NCBI GenBank assembly: GCA_949299535.1 | Contig: CASGAQ010000001.1 | Span: 133,471 to 197,470 of the forward strand | Origin: an uncultured Eubacteriales bacterium | GTDB taxonomy: Bacteria > Bacillota > Clostridia > Oscillospirales > CAG-272 | DNA length: 64,000 nt | Direction of reading: 5' to 3' | Part shown: in pieces, positions 19,196-59,651 of the stretch | Position numbering within the stretch: position 1 is the stretch's first letter | How the letters are laid out: each line of letters opens with the position of its first letter | Program-made: the position numbers and the translations under genes | The notes under the pieces: generated by a model | Database searches by the model: none | What the model was told of the DNA's origin: nothing | What the model saw: only the letters and a program-made list of their open reading frames with translations

Positions 19196-19213
19196 CAAAT
19201 TCGGAAAAAACTA

Positions 19214-19242
19214 TTGACTTTTAAGGGCGAAAACCATATAAT
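19214..19242 (+). promoter_or_regulatory. Consensus sigma-A promoter of the ilvA leader
   Basis: TTGACT, 17 nt, TATAAT. Confidence 0.6.
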
Positions 19243-19249
19243 AAATCTT

Positions 19250-19551
19250 ATGATTCATACAATAATATTACATGAAATGCGATGACGGAAAAAATATCGC
19301 GCATATGCTTTGCAAAGAGAAACGGCGGCAGGTGAGAGCCGGAGAAGGCGGCGTGAGAAAGATCATTCCCGAGCAGGAGGCTGAAAACAGGACGTTTGAA
19401 AAATATCCCGTTAAGACGGGTGCGTCTGCCATTAGGTTCTCACGCTGTCCCGCGTTAAAAGGAACGCATATGTCGGTATGCGATAAAGTTTTATTGAGTG
19501 GTACAACGGAATTTATATCCGCCTCAACTATGAGGCGGATTTTTGTTTTTT
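19250..19551 (+). promoter_or_regulatory. T-box riboswitch leader, candidate Ile (AUC) specifier
   Basis: K-turn GCGATGA, AG bulge AGAGA, distal loop GGTGAGA, and candidate specifier ATC followed by A then TTCC-c-GA. T-box sequence GAGTGGTACAACGG (19494-19508). Terminator atccgcctca/tgaggcggat (19517-19540) followed by ttttgtttttt. Confidence 0.75.
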
Positions 19552-19561
19552 GGAGGTATAT

Positions 19562-20758
19562 ATGCTGACTATTGACAAGATCTACGATGCGGCGCGCGTG
19601 CTGGAAAACGTGGTGCGCCATACGCAGCTGATAGAGGCGCCGAGAATAGGCGCGGAATGCGGCTGCCGTGTTTATCTTAAACCGGAAAATCTTCAACTTA
19701 CAGGCTCTTTTAAGGTACGCGGCTCGGCATACAAGATTTCTCAGCTGACGGAGGAGGAAAAAGCTCACGGCGTTATCGCCTGCTCAGCAGGCAACCATGC
19801 TCAGGGCGTGGCGCTTGCGGCGACGAAGCAGGGTATCAAGTCCGTTATCTGTCTGCCTTCTTCCGCTCCCATATCAAAAGTTGAGGCTACAAAGCGCTAC
19901 GGCGCAGAGGTATGCCTTGTAGACGGCGTTTATGATGACGCTTATACAGAAGCTATCCGCCAGAGAGATGAAAAGGATTATACATTCATTCACCCGTTCG
20001 ACGACGATGACGTTATTGCAGGACAGGGAACGATAGGTCTTGAGATACTGAACGAACTGCCTGATACGGATATAGTTGTTGTTCCCGTCGGCGGCGGCGG
20101 TCTTATATCCGGCGTTGCTTTCGCCATCAAAACATTGAAGCCTTCCGTCAAGGTCTACGGCGTTCAGGCTGAGGGCGCGCCTTCGATGTTCAATGCGGTA
20201 AAATCCGGAAAAGCGGAAATGCTTCCTTCCGTTTCGACGTTCGCCGACGGCATAGCCGTAAAATGCCCCGGAGAAAATACGTTTGAATACTGTAAAAAAT
20301 ATGTCGACGAGATAGTTACTGTTTCAGAAGATGAGATATCCGCGGCAATACTCCATCTTATAGAAAACCAGAAACTTACAGCAGAGGGTGCGGGCGCGGT
20401 TTCCGTAGCGGCGGTAAAATTCGGAAAGATACCCGTAGAGGGAAAAAAGGTAGTGTGTCTTGTTTCCGGCGGAAACATAGATGTTACCATACTCTCTCGC
20501 GTGATAGACCGAGGTTTGCACAAGAGCGGCAGAGCCTGCTCCATCGTTATCGAGCTTATCGACAAGCCCGGTCAGCTTGAGGCTGTTTCTCACATCATCG
20601 CGTCATGCGGCGGCAATGTCGTATCCGTTCATCATGAGCACGGCGACGCTCAGGCGGTAAACGGCTGTTTCCTTCGCATAGGCATGGAAACAAGAAGCTT
20701 CGAGCATATCAAGGAGATACGTACAGCTCTTATCTCCAAAGGATTTAAGCTGGTCTGA
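19562..20758 (+). CDS. ilvA: Threonine ammonia-lyase (threonine dehydratase) with C-terminal ACT-like domain
   Basis: PLP motif SFKVRGS and GGGGLISG loop. Start placed at the ATG after GGAGG, because the track ORF begins at an upstream TTG. Confidence 0.9.
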   Translation: MLTIDKIYDAARVLENVVRHTQLIEAPRIGAECGCRVYLKPENLQLTGSFKVRGSAYKISQLTEEEKAHGVIACSAGNHAQGVALAATKQGIKSVICLPSSAPISKVEATKRYGAEVCLVDGVYDDAYTEAIRQRDEKDYTFIHPFDDDDVIAGQGTIGLEILNELPDTDIVVVPVGGGGLISGVAFAIKTLKPSVKVYGVQAEGAPSMFNAVKSGKAEMLPSVSTFADGIAVKCPGENTFEYCKKYVDEIVTVSEDEISAAILHLIENQKLTAEGAGAVSVAAVKFGKIPVEGKKVVCLVSGGNIDVTILSRVIDRGLHKSGRACSIVIELIDKPGQLEAVSHIIASCGGNVVSVHHEHGDAQAVNGCFLRIGMETRSFEHIKEIRTALISKGFKLV

Positions 20759-21919: not shown

Positions 21920-22885
21920 ATGAAAAAAATAATATCTCTCGTTCTCACCTCCGCGCTTCTTGCGCTTATGCTCTTATCCTTTGCATCCTGCTCCTCCGAC
22001 GATAAACCTACCATAGGAATCATACAATTCGGTTCGCACGGCTCGCTCAATAACTGCTATGACGGCATCATGCAGGGACTTGAAGAAATGGGAATTACCG
22101 AAGAAGAATACAACATAGAATATGTAAACAGCAATTTTGACTCAAGCGTTTCTCAGTCGCAGGCGAATACATTTGCAAATAAAAAAGCCGCCGTTATCAT
22201 CGCCATAGCAACTCCCTCCGCAGTTGCCGCCGCAACGGCTTCCGACGGCGCTATTCCCGTTGTTTACTGTGCGGTAACGGATTCTTCGGTCATGGATAAT
22301 TATGAAAACATAACAGGTTCTTCCGATATTCCCGATTTCGACAAACAACTCGAGGTAGTAACGGCATTTATGGGAAAAACCGATATCAAAATAGGCGTGC
22401 TTTACTCCACGGAGGAATCAAGCTCTCCTGTGCAGATTGCAAATCTTAAAGACGCGGCTCAAAAATACGAAGGTATGGAAATAATCGACAGCGCCGTTTC
22501 CGACATCACCACTATCGATTCAAAAACAAACGAGCTTATCGACCGCGGAGTCGACTGCTTTGTAAATCTTCTCGACAACACTATCGTCGGCAAGCTTGAA
22601 ACAAACATTCTTCCCATAACGAACGAAAAAAACATTCCCGTTTTCGGCTCTGAGATAGAGCAGGTCAAGGTAGGATGTGCGGCAAGCGCTTCCATAGATT
22701 ATATAGCCGTGGGAAAATCTGCCGGAACGGCGGCAGCTAAGATACTCGGCGGCGCTTCTGCCGATGATATTCCCGTCGCGGTCATCACCGATCCCACGGT
22801 CTACTACAACAGCGATGTTTGCAAGGCTCTTGGAATGACCGTTCCTTCGGATATCGCGGCGACAGATACAAAGACGCTTTCTTAA
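21920..22885 (+). CDS. ABC transporter substrate-binding lipoprotein (COG2984 / ABC_sub_bind family, TrpX-like)
   Basis: Lipobox LLSFASC|SS. IGIIQFGSH...IATPSAVAA...IPVVYCAVTD pattern of the family. Confidence 0.85.
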   Translation: MKKIISLVLTSALLALMLLSFASCSSDDKPTIGIIQFGSHGSLNNCYDGIMQGLEEMGITEEEYNIEYVNSNFDSSVSQSQANTFANKKAAVIIAIATPSAVAAATASDGAIPVVYCAVTDSSVMDNYENITGSSDIPDFDKQLEVVTAFMGKTDIKIGVLYSTEESSSPVQIANLKDAAQKYEGMEIIDSAVSDITTIDSKTNELIDRGVDCFVNLLDNTIVGKLETNILPITNEKNIPVFGSEIEQVKVGCAASASIDYIAVGKSAGTAAAKILGGASADDIPVAVITDPTVYYNSDVCKALGMTVPSDIAATDTKTLS

Positions 22886-22897
22886 AAGGTTAGATTA

Positions 22898-22997
22898 GCT
22901 GACAAAGATAATGGGCGGCAAAATGACGGAAAGTTTTCGTCCGCCTTTTTCAAAAGGCGGCGCGGTCGAGAGTCATAACCCTCGTTGCCGCCCGCAG
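22898..22997 (+). repeat. ~100-nt interspersed repeat, copy 2
   Basis: See copy 1. It lies in the spacer between the binding-protein and permease genes. Confidence 0.85.
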
Positions 22998-23037
22998 ACT
23001 GTTATTTATAATAAAAAATCATATAGAAGGTTTTGCC

Positions 23038-23994
23038 ATGTCTTTATTTTTCGGTACGACGATAGACGGACTGCAGATGGGACTTTGCTTTGCGGTCATT
23101 GCTCTGGGCGTCTATATCTCATATTCAATACTCGATTTTCCCGATCTCTCGGTCGACGGCACGTTTCCGCTTGGCGGCGTTGTCAGCACTGTCATTATGC
23201 TCAGGCTGGGAGTTCCGCCTCTTGCGGCAATATTCCTCTCTTTTTTTGCCGGCGTGATTGCGGGCACCGTCACGGGTATCCTTCATGTTAAGTTCAAGAT
23301 ATCAAATCTGCTGTCGGGCATAATAGTGATGACGGCGCTTCTTTCCGTGAATTTGGCCCTTACGAAGCTGCTTACGAAAACAGGATATACTACGACAATA
23401 TTTTCCTACAGAAGTGAGGATTTGAAGGGAATTTTCAACGGCGGCTTTGCAGAGCTTTTCGGAAGAGAATACCGAGATTATGTCGTTATAGCCATGCTTC
23501 TTGTTATCGTTGTTGCCATAAAACTTGCTATCGACATTTTTCTCAAAACAAAAGCCGGATATATGCTCCGCGCGACCGGCGACAACGAGCGCGTTGCGGT
23601 GACTTTGGCAAAAAACGCCGGAAACTATAAGATATTCGGTCTTGCGCTTGCAAACGGATTTGTCGCAATGTCAGGCGCGATATACTCTCAGCTTTTCATG
23701 TCTTACGACAACAATTCAGGTACCGGCAAGGCGGTTCTTGCACTTGCCTCCGTTATAATAGGAACCGCAGTATTTTCAAATATAAAATTTTTGAAAGATA
23801 CGACAACCGTCATCATCGGCGCCATAATTTATTCGCTTTGCCTTAATTATCTTGTGCTTGCAGACAAAGACGGCGTATACCTTAAACTGATGAACGCGGT
23901 TCTGTTCGCGCTTATATTGATATTTAACAGAAAGATATCCGATTTTATCCGCAAGCGCTCCGCGGCAAGAGGAGGTAAAAAAGATCATGCTTGA
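23038..23994 (+). CDS. ABC transporter permease (COG4120-type)
   Basis: 318 aa polytopic membrane protein. N-terminal GLQMGLCFAVIALGVYISY...FPDLSVDGTFPLGG is typical of this family. Confidence 0.85.
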   Translation: MSLFFGTTIDGLQMGLCFAVIALGVYISYSILDFPDLSVDGTFPLGGVVSTVIMLRLGVPPLAAIFLSFFAGVIAGTVTGILHVKFKISNLLSGIIVMTALLSVNLALTKLLTKTGYTTTIFSYRSEDLKGIFNGGFAELFGREYRDYVVIAMLLVIVVAIKLAIDIFLKTKAGYMLRATGDNERVAVTLAKNAGNYKIFGLALANGFVAMSGAIYSQLFMSYDNNSGTGKAVLALASVIIGTAVFSNIKFLKDTTTVIIGAIIYSLCLNYLVLADKDGVYLKLMNAVLFALILIFNRKISDFIRKRSAARGGKKDHA

Positions 23995-24760
23995 ACTTCG
24001 CAATATAAAGAAGGTGTTCGGACTCGGAACGGTAAACGAGACGGTACTTTTTGACGGCTTTTCTCTTGATGTGAAGAAGGGAGAATTTCTTTCCGTCGTA
24101 GGCTCAAACGGCAGCGGAAAAACCACAATGCTTAATCTTATCTGCGGCTCTTTGCCGCTTGACGGCGGAAAGATAATCGTCGGCGGCAGAGATATAACCG
24201 CTTTCCCCGAATACAAGCGGTATAAGACTATCGGCAGGGTTTACCAAGACCCCGCCATGGGCACTTGCCCTCATCTTACCATTGCCGAAAACATGGCGCT
24301 TGCCGAACAAAAGGGCGTGCGCTCCGGTTTCGGATTTGGCGTGAATAAAAAGAGAATCTCTTTTTATCGTGAATTGCTCGCTCCGCTGTGTCTGGGGCTT
24401 GAGGACAAGATGGATGTCAAAGTGGGCTTGCTTTCGGGAGGTCAACGTCAGGCTATGGCGCTCATCATGGCTACGATGACGCCGATAGATATACTTATCC
24501 TCGACGAACACACGGCGGCTCTTGACCCGAAAACGGCGGAGATAATAATGCATCTTACAGATGAAGTCGTAAAGAGCAAAGAGCTTACCTCTGTTATGGT
24601 GACGCACAATCTTCGCTTTGCCGCGGAATACGGAAACCGCCTGCTTATGATGCACAACGGACACGCCGTGCTTGACATAGCCGGAGAGGACAAAGCAAAA
24701 ACCAAAGTGGAGGACTTGCTCGGGCTGTTCAACGAGATAAGCGTTGAATGCGGCAACTGA
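23987..24760 (+). CDS. ABC transporter ATP-binding protein (COG1101-type)
   Basis: Walker A GSNGSGKTT, signature LSGGQRQ, Walker B ILILDEHTAALD. Overlaps the permease stop. Confidence 0.9.
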   Translation: MLELRNIKKVFGLGTVNETVLFDGFSLDVKKGEFLSVVGSNGSGKTTMLNLICGSLPLDGGKIIVGGRDITAFPEYKRYKTIGRVYQDPAMGTCPHLTIAENMALAEQKGVRSGFGFGVNKKRISFYRELLAPLCLGLEDKMDVKVGLLSGGQRQAMALIMATMTPIDILILDEHTAALDPKTAEIIMHLTDEVVKSKELTSVMVTHNLRFAAEYGNRLLMMHNGHAVLDIAGEDKAKTKVEDLLGLFNEISVECGN

Positions 24761-24808
24761 AACGACTGTTATATTATGCAAAAAATCTGTATTTTTTCGT
24801 TTAAAATA

Positions 24809-24837
24809 TTGACATGATATTTGCAAGCGTGTATAAT
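24809..24837 (+). promoter_or_regulatory. Consensus sigma-A promoter of the aro cluster leader
   Basis: TTGACA (24809-24814), 17 nt, TATAAT (24832-24837). Confidence 0.65.
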
Positions 24838-24882
24838 TAAACAAAAAGCGGATAAATCCCGCGCAAGGAGGACGATGTAATA

Positions 24883-24939
24883 ATGAAAAAGATGTACTAT
24901 TCTTATTTTCGATTTTATTATTACGCTGCGTCTTTGTGA
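24883..24939 (+). CDS. Candidate aromatic amino acid leader peptide (18 aa: MKKMYYSYFRFYYYAASL)
   Basis: Hand-translated ORF. AGGAGG (24866-24871) lies 11 nt upstream. Codons 5-14 hold 6 Tyr and 2 Phe. Alternative hairpins and a terminator follow. Confidence 0.55.
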   Translation: MKKMYYSYFRFYYYAASL

Positions 24940-25030
24940 GGGCAGTCTGTTTTCCGCATAGTTTTTTTGATTTACAGAAAAGACGAATTGTGCCGCAGAA
25001 TGCCACGGGTTTTTTGCGGCGCTCTTTTTT

Positions 25031-25070
25031 CGCAGAGTTGCCGCAAAAAGGCACTCTGCGTTTTTTGTTT
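25031..25070 (+). terminator. Intrinsic terminator of the aro leader (attenuator terminator)
   Basis: cgcagagt(t)gcc (25031-25042) / ggcactctgcg (25050-25060), 11 bp with one bulge, followed by ttttttgttt. It ends 36 nt before the aminotransferase ATG. Confidence 0.8.
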
Positions 25071-25105
25071 CTGATTTTTTATTTTTAACGGGAGATATTG
25101 ATATA

Positions 25106-26296
25106 ATGATTTCTGAAAAAATGCTTGAGCTTGGAAGAAAAAGCTCGGCTATACGAGAAATATTCGAGTACGGCAGAAAGAGAAAGGCTCAGATAGGCGA
25201 AGAAAACGTTTTTGATTTCAGCCTGGGCAATCCCAGCGTTTGCCCGCCTGCCGTCGTAGGCGAAACGATAAAAAAAATTGTCGATGAGCTTGATCCGACA
25301 GAGCTTCACGGATATACTTCTGCCCCCGGCGACCTTGCAACGCGCAGCGCAGTTGCCAATTATCTTGCGGAGAAATACGGCACGGACGATACGGCTGATA
25401 ATATATATATGACGGTTGGCGCGGCGGCTTCGCTTACAATAAGCCTTAAAGCCGTCATATGCGACGGCGACGAGGTGATAGTTTTGGCGCCGTTTTTCCC
25501 CGAATACCGCGTTTTTGCGGAGAGCGCGGGCGCGAAACTCGTTGTCGTGCCTTGCCGCGAAGGAGATTTTCAGCTCGACGCCGACGCACTTTCTAAAGCT
25601 GTAAACAAGAACACGAAAGCCGTTATCTTAAATTCGCCCAATAATCCCACCGGCGCGGTTTTTTCCGAAGCAAGCATAAAAACTCTTGCCAAAATCCTTT
25701 CGGAAAAGGAAGCTGAGTTTTCCCATACGATATATATAATTTCCGATGAGCCTTACCGCGAGCTTGTATACGGAGATGTGAAAGTTCCTTATACGGCAAA
25801 TTATTATGACGATACTATATCCTGCTACTCTTTCAGCAAATCGCTGTCGCTCCCCGGAGAGCGCATAGGATATATATGCGTTTCCAAAAAATGCGGCGAT
25901 TGGAAAGACATTTTCTTCGCCGTATGCGGAGCGGGACGCGCGCTCGGTTTTGTCTGTGCCCCCAGTCTTATGCAGAAGATTATCCCCGCTTGTCTGGGAA
26001 AAACGTCGGACATCGCCGTTTATGACACAAACCGAAGGATACTTTACAAAGAGCTTACGGATTACGGATACGAGTGTGTAAAACCGGACGGAGCTTTTTA
26101 TATGTTTGTAAAAGCGCTCGAACCGGACGCGGCGGCGTTCTGCGAAAAAGCAAAAAAACACGAACTTCTGCTTGTCCCGTCGGATTCTTTCGGCGCGGAG
26201 GGGTATGTGAGAATATCGTACTGCGTTACGACGGAGCAGATAATGCGCTCGCTTCCGGCTTTTAAGGCGCTTGCGGAAGATTACGGCAAAATTTAA
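25106..26296 (+). CDS. Class I/II pyridoxal-phosphate aminotransferase (aspartate/aromatic type)
   Basis: 396 aa with NSPNNPTG and SFSKSLSLPGERIGY (PLP-lysine) motifs. First gene of the aro cluster. Confidence 0.85.
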   Translation: MISEKMLELGRKSSAIREIFEYGRKRKAQIGEENVFDFSLGNPSVCPPAVVGETIKKIVDELDPTELHGYTSAPGDLATRSAVANYLAEKYGTDDTADNIYMTVGAAASLTISLKAVICDGDEVIVLAPFFPEYRVFAESAGAKLVVVPCREGDFQLDADALSKAVNKNTKAVILNSPNNPTGAVFSEASIKTLAKILSEKEAEFSHTIYIISDEPYRELVYGDVKVPYTANYYDDTISCYSFSKSLSLPGERIGYICVSKKCGDWKDIFFAVCGAGRALGFVCAPSLMQKIIPACLGKTSDIAVYDTNRRILYKELTDYGYECVKPDGAFYMFVKALEPDAAAFCEKAKKHELLLVPSDSFGAEGYVRISYCVTTEQIMRSLPAFKALAEDYGKI

Positions 26297-26313
26297 AAAA
26301 TACGGAGAATAAC

Positions 26314-27396
26314 ATGGACGAACTTGAAAAAGCCAGAATGGAAATAAATGAGGCGGACAAGGGAATTGCGGAACTGTTCTGCAAGAGAATGAACGCGGTG
26401 CGCGCCGTTGCCGAATATAAGAAAAAGAGAGGACTTCCCGTGCTCGACGCAGAGCGCGAAGCGGCGGTGATAGCAAAAAACAGCCGCCTTGTTGAGGACG
26501 AGGAACTTCGTTCGTATTACGTAAATTATCTTAAATACACTATGGAGCTTTCCCGCGCTTATCAGCATAAGCTGATAAGCGGTGCAAGGATAGCATACAG
26601 CGGAATCCCCGGTGCTTTCGCATCGCTTGCCGCGGCAAAACTTTTTCCTGACGGAGAGCATGTGGCATATCCGGATTTCGAGGCTGCTTACAACGCCGTC
26701 GTAAACGGCGAATGCGACAGCGTCGTTCTTCCTATTGAAAACAGCTACGCAGGGGAAGTGGGGCAGGTAATGGATCTTATCTTTTTCGGCTCGCTTTATA
26801 TAAATAACGTCATGGGACTTGCGGTGACGCAAAATCTGCTCGGTGTTCCCGGAAGCAGGCTTGAGGATATAAAGCGTGCCGTAAGCCACCCTCAGGCGCT
26901 TGAACAGTCGGCGGTATATCTTCGCAGCCGCGGAATAGTTCCCGTTTCATTTTCCAATACGGCTTTGGCGGCAAAACATGTTGCGGAGCTTGCGGACAAA
27001 ACGACGGCGGCTGTCGCGGGCGATGAAGCCGCGAATATATACGGGCTTACGGTTCTTGCCCACGGTATAAACGAAAACCATATGAACACGACAAGATTTG
27101 CTACCCTCTCACGCGTGGAGAACAAGCGCACGGGAAGACCGGACGATAATTTCATGCTTGTTTTCACGGTCAAAAACGAAGCGGGAGCGCTTGCCAAAGC
27201 AATGGATATTATCGGAAAGCACAGGTATAACATGCGCGGACTCCACTCCCGTCCGATGAAGGAGCTTATGTGGCAGTATTACTTCTATCTTGAAGCGGAA
27301 GGCGATGTTCGCAACGCAAACGGCGACGAGATGATGAACGAGCTTTGCGACGTCTGCGACAGACTCAAGCTTGTAGGCTCATATACCGTAAAATAA
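26314..27396 (+). CDS. pheA: Bifunctional chorismate mutase / prephenate dehydratase
   Basis: N-terminal AroQ-type CM helix region (R.EI...D..I..L...R), PDT domain (IAYSGIPGAFAS...ENSYAGEV...TRF), and a C-terminal ACT region. Confidence 0.88.
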   Translation: MDELEKARMEINEADKGIAELFCKRMNAVRAVAEYKKKRGLPVLDAEREAAVIAKNSRLVEDEELRSYYVNYLKYTMELSRAYQHKLISGARIAYSGIPGAFASLAAAKLFPDGEHVAYPDFEAAYNAVVNGECDSVVLPIENSYAGEVGQVMDLIFFGSLYINNVMGLAVTQNLLGVPGSRLEDIKRAVSHPQALEQSAVYLRSRGIVPVSFSNTALAAKHVAELADKTTAAVAGDEAANIYGLTVLAHGINENHMNTTRFATLSRVENKRTGRPDDNFMLVFTVKNEAGALAKAMDIIGKHRYNMRGLHSRPMKELMWQYYFYLEAEGDVRNANGDEMMNELCDVCDRLKLVGSYTVK

Positions 27397-27450
27397 TGCG
27401 AACAAAAAGCAAAAACGGCTTATTCGTGCCGTTTCGGAAAGGATATTTAT

Positions 27451-28470
27451 ATGACGATAAATGTTGAGCTCGGAAAATCGAGCTATGATATAGAACTGAG
27501 CCGCGGCGCACTTTTCCGCGCCGGTGAGCTTATTCCCATGAACAGAAACGTTCTTGTGGTCACTGACAGCGGTGTGCCTTGCGAATATGCGGACACCGTC
27601 GCTTCCTTTGCAAAAAAAGCCGTCAAGGCGGTCGTGCCTCAGGGCGAGGCAAGCAAGAGCTTTGAGATGCTTGAATATCTGCTGGCGACTATGCTTGATG
27701 CAGGTTTTACCAGAAAAGACGCGGTCGTAGCCGTCGGGGGAGGTGTCGTGGGTGACCTTGCCGGATTTGCCGCCTCCATGTATATGAGAGGTATTGATTT
27801 TTACAATATCCCGACGACTTTGCTCTCTCAGTTGGATTCTTCCATAGGCGGCAAGACTGCTGTCGATTTTCACGGATATAAAAATATCATTGGCGCATTT
27901 TATCAGCCGAAAAAGGTCATAATCGACCCTGATGTGCTGAAAACTCTTCCACAGCGTCAGGTAGCGGCGGGCATGGCAGAGGCGATAAAGATGTCCGCTA
28001 CGTCAGATAAAGAGCTTTTTGAGGCTCTTGAGTCTGCGGACGATATTTACGCGGATATTGACAAGGTTATCGAACGCGCGCTTCTTATCAAAAAGCACGT
28101 CGTTGAGTGCGATGAAAAGGAGTCAGGGTTCCGCAAGATACTCAATTTCGGTCATACGTTCGGTCACGGGATAGAGAGCGTGTTCGGCGGTACAATGTAT
28201 CACGGAGAATGTGTGGCGCTCGGTATGCTGCCCATGTGCGAAGCTCAGGTAAGAGAAAGACTTGTAAAAGTTCTGAAGAAAGCAGGGCTTGCGACAGAAC
28301 TTAAACTCTCCAGCGAAGAAATGAAAAAAGCTATGGAAGCAGTTTCACATGACAAAAAGAGCGCGGGAGACAGCATAGACGCCGTGCTTGTTAATGAAGT
28401 GGGAACATTTGAAATAAAGAAGCTGACTGCCGATGAAATAGAGGCAAGAGCGGTAAAGATATTCGCATAA
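27451..28470 (+). CDS. aroB: 3-dehydroquinate synthase
   Basis: GGGVVGDLAGFAA and LDSSIGGKTAVD motifs. Confidence 0.92.
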   Translation: MTINVELGKSSYDIELSRGALFRAGELIPMNRNVLVVTDSGVPCEYADTVASFAKKAVKAVVPQGEASKSFEMLEYLLATMLDAGFTRKDAVVAVGGGVVGDLAGFAASMYMRGIDFYNIPTTLLSQLDSSIGGKTAVDFHGYKNIIGAFYQPKKVIIDPDVLKTLPQRQVAAGMAEAIKMSATSDKELFEALESADDIYADIDKVIERALLIKKHVVECDEKESGFRKILNFGHTFGHGIESVFGGTMYHGECVALGMLPMCEAQVRERLVKVLKKAGLATELKLSSEEMKKAMEAVSHDKKSAGDSIDAVLVNEVGTFEIKKLTADEIEARAVKIFA

Positions 28471-28480
28471 GGAGAAGCCG

Positions 28481-29572
28481 ATGAAAAATACGTTTGGAAA
28501 TTCCGTAAGCATTACTGTTTTCGGAGAGAGTCACGGGCCGTTCATAGGCGCTGTGCTTGACGGACTAGCTCCCGGTATAGAGGTCGACGAGGACGCGGTG
28601 CGCCATGCGCTCACGCTCCGCAGACCGGCGGGAAGGATATCCACCGCAAGACAGGAGAAAGACGAATATATTATAGCCAGCGGCGTATTTGAGGGAAAGA
28701 CAACGGGCACGCCGATAACGATAATAATTCCCAATGCAGATACAAGAAGCAAGGATTATAAAAAAACTTACGGGCTTGCACGTCCCGGACACGCGGACTT
28801 TTCGGCTTACTGCAAATATCACGGCTTTGAAGATTACCGCGGCGGAGGTCATTTTTCCGGCAGAATAACGGCTTCGCTTGTTGCGGCAGGCGCCATTGCG
28901 CGAACTGCGCTTGAAAAAAAAGGCGTTTACATTGGCACGCATATAAAAGAGCTTGCCGGCATAGCGGACCGCCCTTTCGGAGAATACAGGGAAGATATAG
29001 ACGAGCTTTATTCCAAAGTATTTCCCGTACTGTCGGCAGAGGCGGAAAACGCAATGAAAGCCGAGATAGAAAAAGCTGCTTTTGAAGGAGACAGCGTCGG
29101 CGGAATGCTTGAAACCGTTATAATAGGCATGCCTGCGGGCGTCGGCGAGCCGTATTTCGATTCGCTCGAAAGCGTGATATCGCATATGATGTTCTCCGTT
29201 CCCGGAGTCAAAGGCGTGCTTTTCGGCGCGGGTACGGATTTTGCCGTAATGCGGGGAAGCGCGGCTAATGACGCTTTCGGGGTGAAAGACGGCAAGATCT
29301 GCACGCTCACGAACAATAACGGCGGGGTGAACGGCGGGATTACAAACGGCGCTGCCGTAATGTTCACCACGGTTGTAAAACCTACGCCCTCCATCTACAA
29401 AAGACAAAAGACAGTAGACTTTTTAAAGTCAGAGGAAACAGATATTTCCATAGAGGGGCGCCATGACCCATGCATAGTTCACCGCGCGAGAATAGTTGCG
29501 GACAGTCTTGCGGCCGTTGCGCTATGCGATATGCTCGCGCAGAGATACGGCACGGATTATCTTGCGCCATGA
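28481..29572 (+). CDS. aroC: Chorismate synthase
   Basis: FGESHG, RPGHADF and GRHDPC motifs. Confidence 0.95.
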   Translation: MKNTFGNSVSITVFGESHGPFIGAVLDGLAPGIEVDEDAVRHALTLRRPAGRISTARQEKDEYIIASGVFEGKTTGTPITIIIPNADTRSKDYKKTYGLARPGHADFSAYCKYHGFEDYRGGGHFSGRITASLVAAGAIARTALEKKGVYIGTHIKELAGIADRPFGEYREDIDELYSKVFPVLSAEAENAMKAEIEKAAFEGDSVGGMLETVIIGMPAGVGEPYFDSLESVISHMMFSVPGVKGVLFGAGTDFAVMRGSAANDAFGVKDGKICTLTNNNGGVNGGITNGAAVMFTTVVKPTPSIYKRQKTVDFLKSEETDISIEGRHDPCIVHRARIVADSLAAVALCDMLAQRYGTDYLAP

Positions 29573-29630
29573 CGGAATAATATATAAAGAAATTCAAACA
29601 AACATATCCGCAAAATTTAAGGAGAGAAAA

Positions 29631-30887
29631 ATGAATAGATACGGACTTCTCGGAGAAAAACTGCCGCACAGCTTTTCAAAGGAAATACACGAAAAAATAG
29701 GAAAATACGATTTTGAACTTATTGAGGTTGCCAAAGAAGACTTTGCCGATTTTGTCTCTAAGCGGGAATTTACGGCAATCAACGTTACGATCCCATATAA
29801 GCGCGATATCATACCATATCTTTATTATATGAGCGATCGTGCAAAAAGCATCGGAGCTGTGAATGTGGTTCTGAACAAGGAAGGAAAGCTTTACGGATAT
29901 AATACTGATTTTGTAGGACTTCGTAACCTTATTTTGCGCGCGGGCTTTGATTTAAAAAATGCCGTTGTTCTTATTCTCGGCTCCGGCGGTACAAGTATGA
30001 CGGCACGCGCTGTTTCCTCAGACCTCGGAGCAAAAGCAATAAAATTTGTGGAATGTGAAGCCCACGGCGAAGTTATTTCCTATGCGGACGCGGCGCGCGA
30101 TTATGCAGACGCGGATTTTATCATAAATACATCTCCCTGCGGAATGTATCCCGATTCGGACGCGACGCCATGGGACACCGTAGATATAAGCTTTGCAAAC
30201 TTTCCGAAGCTCAAGGGCTTTGTAGACGTTATATATAATCCTCTGCGCACGACACTTGCGGTAAAAGCGGGACTTGCGGGAATACCGTCCGTCAACGGAC
30301 TGTATATGCTTGTGGCTCAGGCAGTGGCGGCGGCAGAGATATTCACGGGCGAAAAGATAGACGATTCCGTGACGGAGGGCATATATAAGGAGCTTTTCCT
30401 TCAGAAACAGAATATAGTGCTTACAGGTATGCCCGGAAGCGGCAAGAGCACAATAGGCATGCTCGCCGCGGAAAAGCTCGGACGCAAATTTATAGACACA
30501 GATGAAGAATTTACAAAGGTATACGGCGCTCCCGCCGATTATATAAAAGCAAACGGAGAAGCCGCTTTCAGAGATGCAGAAAGCGAGATAATAAGACGTA
30601 TATGCGAGCATACAACAGGAGCTGTCATTTCCACGGGCGGCGGAGCCGTGCTCAGAGAGCAGAACATTGTGCGACTGCGCCGCAACGGCAGGATATATTT
30701 TATAGACCGAGATATAGACCTTATCGTTCCGACTGATGACAGACCGCTTTCCTCCGACCGAGAAATGCTCAAAAAGCGTTATGAGGAAAGATACGGGATC
30801 TATACCGGCACATGCGACGTTCACATCACGAATGATAAAGAGGCAGAGGACGCGGCACTCAAGGTGATGGAGGACTTTTTAAGATGA
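29631..30887 (+). CDS. aroE/aroK: Fused shikimate dehydrogenase / shikimate kinase
   Basis: Start at ATG 29631 after AAGGAGAG; the track ORF begins 45 codons upstream, overlapping aroC. The N-terminal part resembles AroE (LLGEKLPHSFSKEIH, GSGGTS). The C-terminal ~165 aa carry the kinase P-loop GMPGSGKSTIG and DTDE. Confidence 0.85.
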   Translation: MNRYGLLGEKLPHSFSKEIHEKIGKYDFELIEVAKEDFADFVSKREFTAINVTIPYKRDIIPYLYYMSDRAKSIGAVNVVLNKEGKLYGYNTDFVGLRNLILRAGFDLKNAVVLILGSGGTSMTARAVSSDLGAKAIKFVECEAHGEVISYADAARDYADADFIINTSPCGMYPDSDATPWDTVDISFANFPKLKGFVDVIYNPLRTTLAVKAGLAGIPSVNGLYMLVAQAVAAAEIFTGEKIDDSVTEGIYKELFLQKQNIVLTGMPGSGKSTIGMLAAEKLGRKFIDTDEEFTKVYGAPADYIKANGEAAFRDAESEIIRRICEHTTGAVISTGGGAVLREQNIVRLRRNGRIYFIDRDIDLIVPTDDRPLSSDREMLKKRYEERYGIYTGTCDVHITNDKEAEDAALKVMEDFLR

Positions 30888-31327
30888 AGATACTTGTCAT
30901 AAACGGACCTAACCTCAATATGCTCGGCATACGCGAGCCGGACATATACGGCAAAAACACATACGCCGACCTTGTGAAGCTGATAGAGGGATATTGCCGC
31001 GAAAAGAACGTAGATGTTGAGGTATATCAGTCAAACAGCGAGGGCGATATCGTTACGAAGATACAGCAGGCGTTGGGAAATACCGACGGCATAGTTATAA
31101 ACCCTGCGGCGTATACGCACACGAGCGTTGCGATTCTTGACGCGCTGAAAGCCGTTGCAATTCGCGCGGTGGAGGTTCATATCTCCGACGTTTCGCGCCG
31201 AGAGAGCTTTCGCAGCATAAGCTATGTCCGCGAATATTGTGAAAAGACTATTGCAGGACACGGATTTAACGGATATTCGGAGGCGATAGACATTCTTCTT
31301 GCGCCTCCCGCGGAAAAGAGAGTTTGA
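30884..31327 (+). CDS. aroQ: Type II 3-dehydroquinate dehydratase
   Basis: MKILVINGPNLNMLGIREP...INPAAYTHTSVA motifs. Confidence 0.95.
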   Translation: MKILVINGPNLNMLGIREPDIYGKNTYADLVKLIEGYCREKNVDVEVYQSNSEGDIVTKIQQALGNTDGIVINPAAYTHTSVAILDALKAVAIRAVEVHISDVSRRESFRSISYVREYCEKTIAGHGFNGYSEAIDILLAPPAEKRV

Positions 31328-31330
31328 CCG

Positions 31331-32545
31331 ATGGATATAAGAATAGAAAAAAGCCGCGCCTACGGCAAAGTGACGGCTCCGCCGTCAAAAAGCTTCGCAC
31401 ATCGTCTTATCATATGCGCCGCCATTGCCGGCGGCGGAAGCGAGGTGCGCGGCATTTCGGACAGCGAAGACATACTTGCGACGCTTGACTGTGCCAAGGA
31501 TTGTTTCGGCGCAGAATACAAAAGAAACGGACGCGATATCGTCTTTTGCGGAAGCGATGTGACATTAGCGGCGCACGGCGCGCTTATGTGCCGCGAAAGC
31601 GGAAGCACGATGAGATTTTTTATACCGCTGTGCCTTTTGAAAGACGAGGAATGTGAGCTTTGCGGAAGCGAAAAGCTGTTGTCAAGACCGATGACGGTTT
31701 ATGAGGATATTTGCCGCGCACAGGGACTGACCTTCGAGAACAACGGAGAACGCATCAGGGTAAAAGGTCCGCTCAGAGCCGGAAAATTTACCGTGCCGGG
31801 CAATATTTCCAGTCAATTCATAAGCGGACTCATGCTCGCGCTGCCGCTTCTTGAAGGGGACAGCGAGATATGCATAATACCTCCGCTTGACAGTAAGCCT
31901 TACATAGACATAACCATGAAAGCGCTCGGACTTTTCGGAGTTGAAACTTATTGGAGCGACGAGCTCACGATAAAAATAAAAGGCTGTCAAAAATATCTTC
32001 CTGCAAAGGAAACGGTGGAAGGAGATTATTCAAACGCCGCGTTCCTTTCCGCGCTCGATGTCTTGGGCGGAGAAGTGGAGGTGGAAGGTCTTTGCGGCGA
32101 CAGCGCGCAGGGCGACAAGGCTTATACAGAACAATTCCGCGCGCTTGAAGCCGGCGCTCCGGTGATAGATATTTCAGACTGTCCGGACTTGGCGCCGATA
32201 CTTATGAGCGTAGCGGCGGCAAAAAACGGAGTTAAACTTACGGGCACGGCTCGGCTCAAAATAAAGGAAAGCGATCGCGGCGCCGCGATGGCGGAGGAGC
32301 TTTCGAAATTCGGAGTTCCCGTCGCCGTTTATGACAATGAGATAATCGTTGAAGGCGGATGCCTCGGTACACCTAAAGAGCCTTTGTGCGGGCACAACGA
32401 CCACAGGATAGTCATGTCGATGGCGGTGCTTTGCACTCTTACAGGCGGCGTCATAAAAGGCGCGCAGGCAGTGAAAAAAAGCTATCCCGACTTTTTCGAC
32501 ACTATAAAAAAACTTGGAATAGAGGTTTCTGAAATTGATGATTGA
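31331..32545 (+). CDS. aroA: 3-phosphoshikimate 1-carboxyvinyltransferase (EPSP synthase)
   Basis: 404 aa with PSKS..HR, GNISSQF and HNDHRIVMS motifs. Confidence 0.92.
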   Translation: MDIRIEKSRAYGKVTAPPSKSFAHRLIICAAIAGGGSEVRGISDSEDILATLDCAKDCFGAEYKRNGRDIVFCGSDVTLAAHGALMCRESGSTMRFFIPLCLLKDEECELCGSEKLLSRPMTVYEDICRAQGLTFENNGERIRVKGPLRAGKFTVPGNISSQFISGLMLALPLLEGDSEICIIPPLDSKPYIDITMKALGLFGVETYWSDELTIKIKGCQKYLPAKETVEGDYSNAAFLSALDVLGGEVEVEGLCGDSAQGDKAYTEQFRALEAGAPVIDISDCPDLAPILMSVAAAKNGVKLTGTARLKIKESDRGAAMAEELSKFGVPVAVYDNEIIVEGGCLGTPKEPLCGHNDHRIVMSMAVLCTLTGGVIKGAQAVKKSYPDFFDTIKKLGIEVSEIDD

Positions 32546-33392
32546 AAAAACAAAAAAAATACTTATAGTGGGACTGGGACTTCTCGGCGGAAGCTATGCT
32601 CAGTCGCTTACGCGCCAAGGATATGAAGTTTTTGCCATAACGAGAAAACAAAGCACGATAGATTATGCTTTGGAGCATGGGATGATTGCGCGCGGAACGA
32701 CGGAAATAGACGCCCGGATGATAGGACAGGCAGATATAGCTGTTTTTGCGCTCTATCCTCACGTCTTTATCGAATGGATGGAAAAGAACGGCAAATATTT
32801 CAAAAAAGGAGCTATAATCACGGATGTAACAGGCGTTAAATGCGCCATTGTCGATAAGATACAGTCGCTTCTTCCCGAAGGCGTTGAATTTATCGGCGCG
32901 CACCCTATGGCGGGAAAAGAAGTTTACGGTATCGAAAACAGCAACGAGGAAATGTTTAAAGGAGCCAACTACATTGTGACGCCTAATGAAAAGAATACGC
33001 CTCATGCCATAGAAACGTGCAAGGAGCTTGGCAGAATACTCGGATTTGCAAATATATCCGAGCTTTCACCCCAGAAGCACGACAGAATGATAGGCTTTCT
33101 TTCTCAGCTTACACATTGTATCGCGGTGGCGCTCATGACGTGCAACGACGACGTCAACCTCTGTAAGTATACGGGCGACTCGTTCAGAGATCTTACAAGA
33201 ATAGCGCGTATAAACGAGGATATGTGGAGCGAGCTTTTCATGCTCAATAAGGATATACTCATTTCCGAGATAAAAGCGTTCGGAGGCGAACTTGAAAAAC
33301 TGCGCCGCGCTATGGAAACGGACGATGTCGAAACTATGAAGAATATGATGCGTACTTCCACAGCCAGACGCGCTATGTTCGATAAGAAATAA
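32538..33392 (+). CDS. tyrA: Prephenate dehydrogenase
   Basis: IVGLGLLGGS Rossmann motif and GAHPMAG. Overlaps the aroA stop. TTG 32535 is an alternative start. Confidence 0.88.
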   Translation: MIEKTKKILIVGLGLLGGSYAQSLTRQGYEVFAITRKQSTIDYALEHGMIARGTTEIDARMIGQADIAVFALYPHVFIEWMEKNGKYFKKGAIITDVTGVKCAIVDKIQSLLPEGVEFIGAHPMAGKEVYGIENSNEEMFKGANYIVTPNEKNTPHAIETCKELGRILGFANISELSPQKHDRMIGFLSQLTHCIAVALMTCNDDVNLCKYTGDSFRDLTRIARINEDMWSELFMLNKDILISEIKAFGGELEKLRRAMETDDVETMKNMMRTSTARRAMFDKK

Positions 33393-33542
33393 ACCAAACA
33401 AAAAAACGTAAGAGATTTTATTATAAATCATAGAAAACAAATAAAAAGCAAAGTGCAGTCCTCTCTTTCGCGCCGGCGCGGGAGGAGGAGAGGCTTTGCC
33501 GTGCTTTCCATAAGGGAGAGCGGAAAGGATAGGACAAAAATT

Positions 33543-34574
33543 ATGAATATGAACTTCAAAAGAAAGCTTCCCATTCCTCTGGAAGTCAAGCAGATGTATC
33601 CCCTTACAAGCGAGCTTGAAAAAGTCAAGGCGGAACGCGACAAGGCGATAAAAGCCGTTTTCACAGGCGAGAGCGACAAAATGATACTTATTATAGGACC
33701 TTGTTCCGCAGATACGGAAGATTCCGTTATGGACTACATTCACAGGCTCAAGCTCGTTCAGGAAAAAACTGCGGATAAACTCATAATTATCCCCAGAATA
33801 TATACAGGCAAGCCCAGAACGATAGGCGACGGTTACAAGGGCATGGTACATCAGCCCAACCCCAACGAGGAGCCTGACGCTTTCAAAGGGATCGTCGCAG
33901 TACGCGAGATACATATGAGAGCGCTTGCCGAAACAGGTCTTTCCACTGCTGACGAAATGCTCTATCCTGAAAATCACCGTTATGTTTCCGACCTGCTTTC
34001 ATATGTTGCGGTCGGCGCGCGCAGCGTAGAAGACCAGCAGCACAGACTCACGGCGAGCGGTCTTAACATTCCCGTAGGCATGAAAAATCCCACAAGCGGG
34101 GATATTTCCGTTATGATGAACTCCGTCACGGCAGGACAGCACGCACATCAGTTTATATACCGCAGCTGGGAGGTAGAGAGCTATGGCAATGAATATGTTC
34201 ATTCAATTCTTCGCGGATATGTAAATAAGCACGGTCAGTCCATGCCTAACTACCATTATGAGGACCTCATGCACTTGTTCGAAGAATACGCAAAGAAACC
34301 CGATCTCAAAAATCCCGCCGTCATCATCGACACGAACCATTCCAACTCCGGCAAGAAATATCTGGAGCAGATACGTATTGCAAAAGAAGTGCTCTACTCC
34401 TGCAATTATTCTTCCGATATTCGCAAGATAGTCAAAGGATTTATGATAGAGAGTTATATAGAGGACGGCGCTCAGAAGATAGGCGACGGCGTTTACGGCA
34501 AATCCATCACAGACCCTTGTCTTGGCTGGGAGAAGACGGAGAGGCTCATTCTCGACATCGCAGATTCCATATGA
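33543..34574 (+). CDS. 3-deoxy-7-phosphoheptulonate (DAHP) synthase, class I (AroF/G/H-like)
   Basis: IIGPCS, KPRT and VGMKNP motifs. ATG 33543 chosen. An in-frame GTG at 33501 with a strong SD is an alternative start. Confidence 0.88.
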   Translation: MNMNFKRKLPIPLEVKQMYPLTSELEKVKAERDKAIKAVFTGESDKMILIIGPCSADTEDSVMDYIHRLKLVQEKTADKLIIIPRIYTGKPRTIGDGYKGMVHQPNPNEEPDAFKGIVAVREIHMRALAETGLSTADEMLYPENHRYVSDLLSYVAVGARSVEDQQHRLTASGLNIPVGMKNPTSGDISVMMNSVTAGQHAHQFIYRSWEVESYGNEYVHSILRGYVNKHGQSMPNYHYEDLMHLFEEYAKKPDLKNPAVIIDTNHSNSGKKYLEQIRIAKEVLYSCNYSSDIRKIVKGFMIESYIEDGAQKIGDGVYGKSITDPCLGWEKTERLILDIADSI

Positions 34575-59451: not shown

Positions 59452-59651
59452 GATGGCTTCCTCCCTGAAAATATAATAACGAAACGTTCATGCGAGCATG
59501 CAGCGGACCGTGTCGCGCCATGCCATAGCACAGCAGAAAAATTATATCATCATTATACTCAAAAATCAATAGTTTTTCAGAAAAAATCGGAAAGTATAAA
59601 AATTTTTTCGCGGATAATACTAAAAAAGAAATTTATTTTTCGGAAAAGACG

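Follow-up and report, generated by a model that had tools for sequence, protein, structure and literature searches.

A putative Tyr/Phe leader-peptide attenuator in front of a nine-gene aromatic amino acid cluster in uncultured gut Clostridia

This study concerns a 64,000-nucleotide (nt) stretch of contig CASGAQ010000001.1 from an uncultured Eubacteriales bacterium, referred to here as the window, and in particular the leader that precedes a nine-gene cluster for aromatic amino acid biosynthesis. Leader-peptide attenuation is a textbook mechanism in Proteobacteria and is as yet little documented in Firmicutes, T-boxes, TRAP and repressors being the prevailing regulators there. Our analysis indicated that the leader is very probably a ribosome-mediated transcription attenuator, in which translation of the Tyr and Phe codons of a short open reading frame (ORF) would determine whether RNA polymerase reads into the downstream genes. 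The original prediction, made from the sequence alone, was that one Tyr/Phe-sensing attenuator controls the common shikimate pathway and the Phe and Tyr branches together, and it was supported by the comparative and folding evidence presented here. That evidence consists of the sequence elements of the leader, their conservation among relatives, and RNA folds that change with the position of the ribosome.

All features of the leader and of the operon described below lie on the plus strand, and their coordinates refer to the window. Transcription would start from a predicted sigma-70-type promoter, assigned by sequence match (TTGACA at 24809-24814, a 17-nt spacer and TATAAT at 24832-24837), which was the sole 12-of-12 match when the 13 kb between 24000 and 37000 were scanned; the TATAATTAAACAAAAAGCGG found at this promoter is kept in those relatives whose leader is of the window's type (see below). 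The transcript is predicted to begin at about 24844-24845 with a 5′-untranslated region (UTR; region 1, 24845-24874) that in the minimum free energy (MFE) fold forms a small 5′ hairpin (24848-24862) and contains the Shine-Dalgarno (SD) sequence AGGAGG (24866-24871). The leader ORF (24883-24939), whose ATG at 24883 lies 46 nt past the −10 box and whose TGA stop codon occupies 24937-24939, comprises 18 codons and encodes MKKMYYSYFRFYYYAASL. Codons 5-14 hold six Tyr and two Phe codons, arranged as TAC TAT (TCT) TAT TTT (CGA) TTT TAT TAT TAC at 24895-24924; there is no Trp codon in the ORF and no trp gene in the operon. Eight aromatic codons in 10, in a frame with an ATG, appeared in none of 5000 dinucleotide shuffles of the 268-nt leader, the best result being 7, reached 25 times, and no small ORF elsewhere in the 64-kb window has at least 7 aromatic codons in 10. 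The positions originally assigned to the promoter, the SD sequence and the ORF were all borne out.

The leader region had been left empty by gene callers, and a search of 24700-25200 against Rfam 15 returned no match, either at the gathering threshold or at an E value of ≤10; this includes the leader-peptide families (Phe_leader RF01859, His_leader RF00514, Trp_leader RF00513 and others). Two further frames overlap or adjoin the elements described above. A minimal ATG-TAA frame at 24875-24880 lies between the SD sequence and the leader ATG, 3 nt past the former; it is absent in relatives and hence is probably without function. On the minus strand, a 316-codon ORF with a GTG start (24104-25054) overlaps the gene for an ATP-binding cassette (ABC) ATPase and the entire leader. 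This frame is spurious, a product of ORF listing, and because of it a naive search of intergenic gaps would overlook the leader.

To place the leader among its relatives, we searched with the aminotransferase encoded by the first gene of the cluster, taking one genome per species, and obtained 80 loci, about 25 of which have Tyr/Phe-rich small ORFs 150-250 nt upstream of the aminotransferase gene. Pattern searches then brought the leaders of the same type as that in the window to 12 species, the window's own included, all of them uncultured Clostridia from gut, rumen or caecum. The other species of this type have the Tyr/Phe-rich ORF at the equivalent place, with an SD sequence, in 11 of 11 cases, every relative has an SD-like run of purines ahead of the ORF, and the peptides follow the pattern M..YYYAMRFYYY(T/A)... 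The comparison of orthologous leaders proposed at the outset therefore showed that both the ORF and its Tyr/Phe run are kept: substitutions in the run either exchange Y and F or are silent (TAT/TTT, TAT/TAC, TTT/TTC) and its positions remain aromatic, while the N-terminal residues drift freely. Six other assemblies of the window's species have an identical leader ORF. One stretch of the run sets this species apart, as 24901-24909 reads TCT TAT TTT where the 11 relatives have TAT GCT ATG (TAT TCT ATG in L087 and L153). The change raises the aromatic count from 7 to 8, loses CTATGCG, the conserved partner of CGCATAG (24955-24961), and is fixed in the six other assemblies of the species.

A second type of leader was found in metagenome-assembled genomes (MAGs) of Acutalibacteraceae/Oscillospiraceae, from which we collected 31 distinct leaders with a Tyr/Phe-rich ORF and an SD sequence; their peptides resemble ..N.FYFYYFKQDCLTSFKKAN. 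When loci were retrieved with 21 bases of the terminator region of this type and zero bases of the ORF, 28 were obtained, and the ORF was present in all 27 complete ones (23 with ATG and 4 with GTG). Neither among these 27 nor among the 11 relatives of the window did we find a leader that had kept the terminator and lost the ORF or its aromatic run. We folded the RNA downstream of the ribosome footprint in all 31 leaders and read out the pairs at the terminator base, beside the U tract. With the ribosome on the first aromatic codon the terminator base formed in 1 of 31 leaders, with the ribosome on the middle aromatic codon in 0 of 31, and with the ribosome on the stop codon in 29 of 31. When the ribosome is stalled, the terminator bases are taken by a long hairpin between the 3′ part of the ORF (GGACUGUCUU...) and AAGACAGUCC. 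This antiterminator hairpin is 96 % paired across the leaders and includes 8 pairs with both sides changed; none of 500 shuffles reached it, and slid controls stayed at or below 47 %. The SD region (AGAGAGGAGACAG) is able to pair with that stretch of the ORF as well (92 % paired, with 4 double changes; 7 of 500 shuffles). The layout of the second type thus consists of the SD region (segment 1), the distal ORF (segment 2), and the 5′ and 3′ arms of the terminator (segments 3 and 4), with the regulatory codons in the loop between segments 1 and 2.

The two types are not alignable, and nhmmer with the second-type profile did not find the window's leader. There are intermediate forms, for example ..QRFYYYTMDCLC.. 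and VKRNYGRFYYYYFTTTD.., which have CGATTTTATTAYTAY in common with the window's type and GGAYTGTCT in common with the second type, and a common origin of the two is plausible. In two Acutalibacteraceae MAGs, the neighbourhood of the aro leader also contains very short F/Y-rich ORFs (LFTFCFYYE and LFSYFFSYFFN), preceded by an SD-like sequence and followed by a T run, at position 788 of L036 (equal to 4639 of L145) and on the minus strand at 5894 of L049 (equal to 6074 of L148). These may be second aromatic leaders in front of neighbouring genes, or they may be due to chance.

The persistence of the ORF bears on whether it is translated at all. It might be a by-product of A/U-rich helices in an untranslated structured RNA sensor, such as a riboswitch or a tRNA- or protein-binding leader. 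One such helix is formed by GUAAUAAUGAAAA and UUUUAUUAUUAC; the start codon is complementary to the second Tyr cluster over 13 bp in the window and its closest relatives; and the segment a′ (24989-25004, see below) is invariant over the 12 species, as ligand or protein sites often are. However, the helix is absent in L003, L094, L152, L004 and the entire second type, in all of which the ORF, the SD sequence and the aromatic run persist, and four second-type leaders have an in-frame GTG at the same place. The changes within the run preserve the amino acid class (Y/F) rather than base pairing, the invariance of a′ is explained by its three partners, and the Rfam search reported above adds to these points. 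An untranslated sensor is therefore quite improbable, and the ORF is predicted to be translated. Residues outside the aromatic run are conserved too (RFYYY, and DCLTSFKKA in the second type), which would suit a peptide that is itself the product or the sensor, either as a small hydrophobic protein or as an arrest peptide that, inside the ribosome tunnel, would respond to free Tyr/Phe as TnaC does to Trp. Those residues are nevertheless encoded by strands of conserved helices, which explains them; the peptides of the relatives have no match in a 15-billion protein collection, no NCBIfam model and no family; and induction by excess amino acid would be of the wrong sign for a biosynthetic operon. 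We consider a function of the peptide as such barely credible.

Downstream of the ORF, three helices had been proposed to compete for the same bases, and all three are present base for base. Their strands are a′ (TGTGCCGCAGAATGCC, 24989-25004), b (TTTTTTGCGGCGCTCT, 25010-25030 including a T run at 25026-25030), c (CGCAGAGTTGCCGCAAAAA, 25031-25049) and d (GGCACTCTGCG, followed by the U tract TTTTTTGTTT, 25050-25070). Helix (i), c:d, pairs 25031-25042 with 25050-25060 and is followed by TTTTTTGTTT; the resulting predicted terminator, an 11-bp G+C-rich stem (25031-25060) with T6, is present in the sequences of all 12 species and ends 36 nt before the first ATG of the operon (25106). Helix (ii), b:c, pairs 25011-25020 with 25040-25049 and 25022-25025 with 25034-25037, so that c serves either as the terminator 5′ arm or as the partner of b. 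Helix (iii), a:b, pairs 24990-25000 with 25012-25022. The MFE fold of 24845-25075 (−82.5 kcal/mol, z = −5.9, none of 200 shuffles as stable) contains both (i) and (iii), and helix (ii) is the MFE fold at the intermediate length at which 25031-25049 has been transcribed and 25050-25060 has not. Duplexes as good as those observed occurred in 0 of 2000 shuffles for a:b, 0 of 2000 for c:d, 2 of 2000 for b:c and 1 of 2000 for a:d. The U run of the terminator (25061-25067) varies in length, being T6 in the window and T7 in L154, L155, L158 and L159, which is the only difference detected in the 345-nt intergenic region among assemblies of the species.

The pairings were compared over the 12 species of the window's type. 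The c:d helix is 88 % paired, compared with at most 65 % when slid, a′:d is 96 % paired, and per-sequence folding allows a b:c helix of 14-19 bp in 12 of 12 sequences. The segment a′ is identical in 12 of 12 species, two of which were found with patterns that did not include it. A scan of metagenomes with a pattern covering a′ and b gave 28 matches, only two of which were leaders; the other 26 were coding sequence in Methylobacter, Pseudomonas and others and were discarded. All 12 sequences have a T-rich tract behind the a:b hairpin, and a:b together with TCTTTTTT may form a first, weaker terminator or a pause site. Further upstream, the 5′-UTR can pair with region 2 (24925-24958), which consists of GCTGC at 24925-24929 and, at 24941-24958, a segment that we call Z (GGCAGTCTGTTTTCCGCA), the 5′ strand of the putative antiterminator. 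UTR:region-2 duplexes have energies of −19 to −30 kcal/mol in 11 species and are strong in 10 of them, with 0-17 of 500 shuffles as good (147 of 500 in the exception, L087), and the partners change together between clades (CAAGGAG:UCUUUG, ACGAAAG:CUUUCGU and UUCGGAG:CUCUUCGAA).

Two hairpins, each followed by a T run, might also do no more than terminate transcription constitutively or insulate the aro operon from the ABC-transporter operon that lies upstream of it, and the ORF would then regulate nothing. Since no terminator-like hairpin was seen between the transporter stop codon (24760) and 24809, something must indeed end the transporter transcript. But the perfect promoter precedes the hairpins instead of following them, and the stretch from 25070 to 25106 has no comparable promoter, which would leave the aro genes without one. 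The leader, moreover, stays with the aminotransferase gene in loci that have a different gene upstream, and the alternative pairings are conserved along with the ORF. Simple insulation is, on these grounds, most improbable. The attenuator would presumably terminate transcription in vivo.

How the position of the ribosome reaches these helices is a separate question. The ORF ends 51 nt before the strand of helix (iii) at 24990-24997, and direct masking of that strand in the manner of trp attenuators is therefore impossible. The link, which the original prediction did not contain, is in our judgement slightly better than an even bet to be segment Z. Z, written as GGCAGUCUGUUUUCCGCA, pairs with a′, written as UGUGCCGCAGAAUGCC, through 13 bp in three blocks (GGCA:UGCC, UCUGU:GCAGA and CGCA:UGUG), and the loop encloses an A/U-rich spacer hairpin (24961-24984) that is seen in the folds and varies in sequence and length among relatives. 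The invariant bases of Z (GGCA, CTG and CGCA) are exactly the paired ones, and its unpaired bases vary. The distance from the last aromatic codon to the start of Z is 16 nt throughout the 12 sequences, too far for a stalled ribosome to cover Z, and the stop codon is found at three places (−17, −11 and +4 relative to Z), each of which puts a terminating ribosome on Z. Z also resembles a copy of the terminator 3′ arm d (GGCAGUCUG compared with GGCACUCUGCG). Because a′ is 96 % complementary to d, formation of b:c alone cannot prevent termination; only the capture of a′ by Z can.

When the whole leader was folded thermodynamically with the ribosome footprint placed on each aromatic codon in turn, no switch appeared, as a:b and c:d were always formed, and we therefore adopted stage-by-stage folding of the growing transcript with the ribosome footprint in place. 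With the ribosome stalled on the second Tyr cluster, a′ emerged and b not yet made, Z:a′ was the MFE fold in 12 of 12 sequences, and with the ribosome at the stop codon 0-4 bp of Z:a′ were left. Once c had been made, Z:a′ together with b:c was the MFE fold in 9 of 12 sequences and in L153 remained so to the end.

These folds are consistent with the following relay. From a transcript begun at about 24845, the ribosome would load at the SD sequence and ATG (24866 and 24883), and its position would set the outcome. If Tyr or Phe is short, the ribosome would stall within 24895-24924 with its front edge at about 24934 and leave Z free to capture a′ (24989-25004) as soon as the latter is made; b (25010-25025) would then have no partner until c (25031-25049) appears, b:c would form, d (25050-25060) would be left unpaired, and the polymerase would read into the operon. 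With a good supply, the ribosome would run to the stop codon at 24937-24939 and cover Z to about 24949. In that case a′ would pair with b to give a hairpin followed by a U-rich tract and c with d, or, alternatively, a′ would pair with d around b:c; either way a hairpin would abut the U tract and transcription would end at about 25066. Without translation, the 5′-UTR and SD sequence would pair with region 2 including Z, hiding the SD sequence and making termination the default.

Several results weigh against this scheme, and some of them against the attenuator as such. Z:a′ with b:c was never the MFE fold in three of the 12 sequences (L002, L089 and L098), and the final MFE fold was the terminated one in 11 of 12 sequences whatever the ribosome position. 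As the terminated fold is finally the more stable, the readthrough state would have to be trapped kinetically. For the step from Z:a′ to a:b, a barrier of 14-20 kcal/mol was estimated in 9 of the 10 sequences in which a:b is the lower state (none in L094), but this is a direct-path heuristic, and the trapping is only estimated by it. Taken alone, Z:a′ was not significant, 126 of 2000 shuffles being as good, and it shows no covariation, since a′ never varies. Fixed-register covariation of a:b, b:c, c:d and the UTR helix, in 10-12 sequences, was not significant, nor was that of a′:d, because the set is shallow and a′ does not change. The two leader types being unalignable, the second-type evidence transfers by analogy and through the intermediate forms, not by proven homology. 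The spacing of 11 nt between the SD sequence and the ATG is rather long, and a search for RNA sequencing data returned only metagenome DNA runs, with no RNA run containing this organism. Taking these points together, we lean towards the exact relay as proposed with little more than even confidence; the trapping and the response to Tyr and Phe are likewise predictions.

The weakness of Z:a′ as a single pairing leaves some room for a leader-peptide attenuator with another relay. In one version, the ribosome would melt a fourth hairpin, 24929-24935 with 24979-24985, and so alter the stability of the a:b hairpin; in another, the three helices would compete, and polymerase pausing, for which the T-rich tract past a:b could be the site, would together with the time of ribosome release decide between a:b and b:c. 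The fourth hairpin, which had been expected to remodel the fold upon translation, does exist in the window, and comparable pairings can be drawn by hand in several relatives (for example TTCGAAT:ATTTGAA in L004 and TTTCGT:GTGAAA in L003). It is only loosely kept, however: synonymous changes disrupt it in L087 and L098, it is in no MFE fold, and it is the MFE partner of neither of its strands. Both the MFE fold and the duplex energies make the SD region a more plausible partner of its 5′ strand, cgtcttt, than the aaagacg assigned to it earlier. Nor does it overlap a′, b, c or d, so that it cannot alone change their pairing, and it would be melted by a stalled ribosome and by a ribosome at the stop codon alike. 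We regard a relay other than Z:a′ as unlikely.

Attenuation of this kind had been thought not to be the commonly described mode for aromatic pathways in Firmicutes, an assessment that is out of date. Stav et al. (2019, BMC Microbiol 19:66, PMC6429828) found, starting from Clostridium novyi NT, two F/Y-rich "aromatic amino acid attenuator" motifs, uORF-12 and uORF-13, that occur in Bacilli, Clostridia and Negativicutes. The 1258 examples of uORF-12 lie mostly before transporters and sometimes before shikimate genes, with the aromatic codons just before the stem P1, whereas the 336 examples of uORF-13 in Bacillales, Clostridiales, Thermoanaerobacterales, Negativicutes and metagenomes precede aroF, tyrA and shikimate genes and combine a short ORF and a terminator with F-Y-F "within the loop of P1" (PMC6429828). 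Like the window's leader, these motifs consist of an F/Y-rich short ORF with a ribosome-binding site followed by a terminator stem, and they are found upstream of shikimate genes in Firmicutes including Clostridiales, with many metagenomic examples. The wording used for uORF-13 also fits the window's leader, where the loop closed by the UTR:region-2 helix contains the aromatic codons, a likeness by description only. The published consensus, in contrast, has three aromatic residues, compared with 7-8 in two clusters in the window's type and 6-7 in one cluster in the second type; the window's first gene encodes an aminotransferase and is followed by pheA, unlike the genes behind uORF-12 and uORF-13; and the published description comprises an ORF and a terminator, a multi-segment relay being proposed only for the window.

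Among other aromatic leaders, pheL-pheA of Escherichia coli (RF01859; PMC11802643) has in common with the window an aromatic leader peptide, a chorismate mutase/prephenate dehydratase gene and a choice between terminator and antiterminator, but it uses Phe codons only, controls a single gene and has the trp-style arrangement of four segments, the first of which contains the codons. The aroR leader of Corynebacterium glutamicum, likewise a Gram-positive aromatic leader peptide, carries F-Y-F before a DAHP synthase operon, and Phe limitation is reported to have raised its readthrough in experiments (Neshat et al. 2014, via PMC11802643 and PMC6429828). It differs in belonging to Actinobacteria, in having only three regulatory codons and in being reportedly unaffected by Tyr supply; Stav et al. 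describe its peptide and RNA structure as distinct from the Firmicutes motifs (PMC6429828). Upstream of aroF in Acholeplasma, uORFC-13-1 is a predicted Phe-codon uORF beside a terminator (Brewer et al. 2021, PMC8632094). It resembles the window as a predicted uORF with a terminator before the first shikimate gene, and differs in being narrow to Acholeplasma, in its U run for Phe only and in its motif. His and Leu leaders are also known in Firmicutes (PMC9413887, PMC2965389, PMC5794164).

The closest parallel in logic lies outside the aromatic systems and the Firmicutes. The his operon attenuator of Salmonella and E. coli (RF00514) alternates between the hairpins A:B, C:D and E:F and the hairpins B:C and D:E. 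There, as proposed for the window, a ribosome stall on a codon run is relayed to a distant terminator, and termination is the default without translation. The his attenuator is, however, a proteobacterial element with His codons and has no sequence relation to the window's Tyr/Phe leader; in the window the SD region itself serves as the first segment, the loop closed by the first helix contains the regulatory codons, and direct pairing with the terminator 3′ arm is a further option for a′. T-boxes (RF00230) are the usual amino acid sensors in Firmicutes. Like the aro leader as proposed here, they respond to the charging of tRNA by forming either a terminator or an antiterminator, but a T-box binds uncharged tRNA directly and is untranslated, whereas the aro leader would be translated.

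Regulators of this kind are already known; the element would add no more than another member, with a worked mechanism, and involves no new principle. The window's and the Acutalibacteraceae-type leaders could tentatively be seen, though we hold this with somewhat less than even confidence, as architectures outside the published uORF-12 and uORF-13 motifs, in which Tyr-dominated leader peptides with up to 8 aromatic codons gate a nine-gene operon in uncultured gut Clostridia. Under the same tentative reading, what would be distinctive is the use of the SD region as segment 1 with the regulatory codons in the loop of the first helix and, in the window's type, Z as a decoy of the terminator 3′ arm for a three-partner a′ ahead of two successive hairpins with U tracts.

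The genes behind the leader fit a Tyr/Phe signal. NCBIfam confirmed the co-oriented nine-gene aromatic cluster reported earlier (25106-34574): in order, the first five genes encode an aminotransferase (PRK06836), PheA (chorismate mutase/prephenate dehydratase), AroB, AroC and an AroE-AroK fusion, and the last four AroQ, AroA, TyrA (prephenate dehydrogenase) and a class I-alpha DAHP synthase. All nine serve the synthesis of Tyr, Phe or their common precursors, intergenic gaps in the ORF map are at most 60 nt, so the genes are presumably co-transcribed, and the order aminotransferase-pheA-aroB is kept in relatives. The small element is thus predicted to set the whole supply line of Tyr and Phe, from DAHP synthase to the final transamination, in dozens of species of uncultured gut and rumen Clostridia. 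Having been missed by gene callers and Rfam, it is absent from the annotation and the metabolic models of these MAGs. The general idea dates from 2019, and what is gained here is a worked mechanism and new family members; the two architectures and their intermediates offer a natural series in which the rewiring of attenuators can be studied, and such a short, self-contained switch could serve as a Tyr/Phe-responsive part.

Three kb upstream of the aro leader, a T-box leader (RF00230, 21518-21765, 100.8 bits) carries the specifier UGG (Trp). The scan that finds it gave no T-box match and no Stem I features at the aro leader itself. Downstream of this T-box lies a three-gene ABC transporter (21920-24760) with a binding protein that resembles the tryptophan transporter TrpX. 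Within one organism, Trp uptake thus seems to be governed by a T-box and, next to it, Tyr/Phe synthesis by a leader peptide, which would be two distinct means of reading tRNA charging. The order of T-box and ABC transporter, leader and aro operon is kept in several relatives (L081, L085, L089, L090 and L092). We speculate that readthrough from the Trp-controlled operon into the aro leader might provide a Trp input to the common pathway.

Some minor observations were made elsewhere. The gene ilvA (threonine ammonia-lyase, 19550-20758) is preceded by a 354-nt gap (19196-19549) that has no Rfam match and no Ile/Thr-rich small ORF. No further leader peptides were found in the window; an Ile-rich small ORF at 59498 was considered as one and dropped, as it adjoins spore-germination genes. 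Among the roughly 55 aminotransferase loci without the Tyr/Phe-rich ORF, a T-box core was found upstream in one, a comparison that is uninformative since in many of them the gene lies inside another operon. The orthologues of the aminotransferase gene in Clostridium sensu stricto (L007, L014, L016, L019, L026 and L050) have no F/Y-rich ORF. These loci carry a box, ATATCAGAAAATTCAAAA, right after a −10-like hexamer, about 100-190 nt upstream of the aminotransferase gene, which is possibly an operator or another RNA element.

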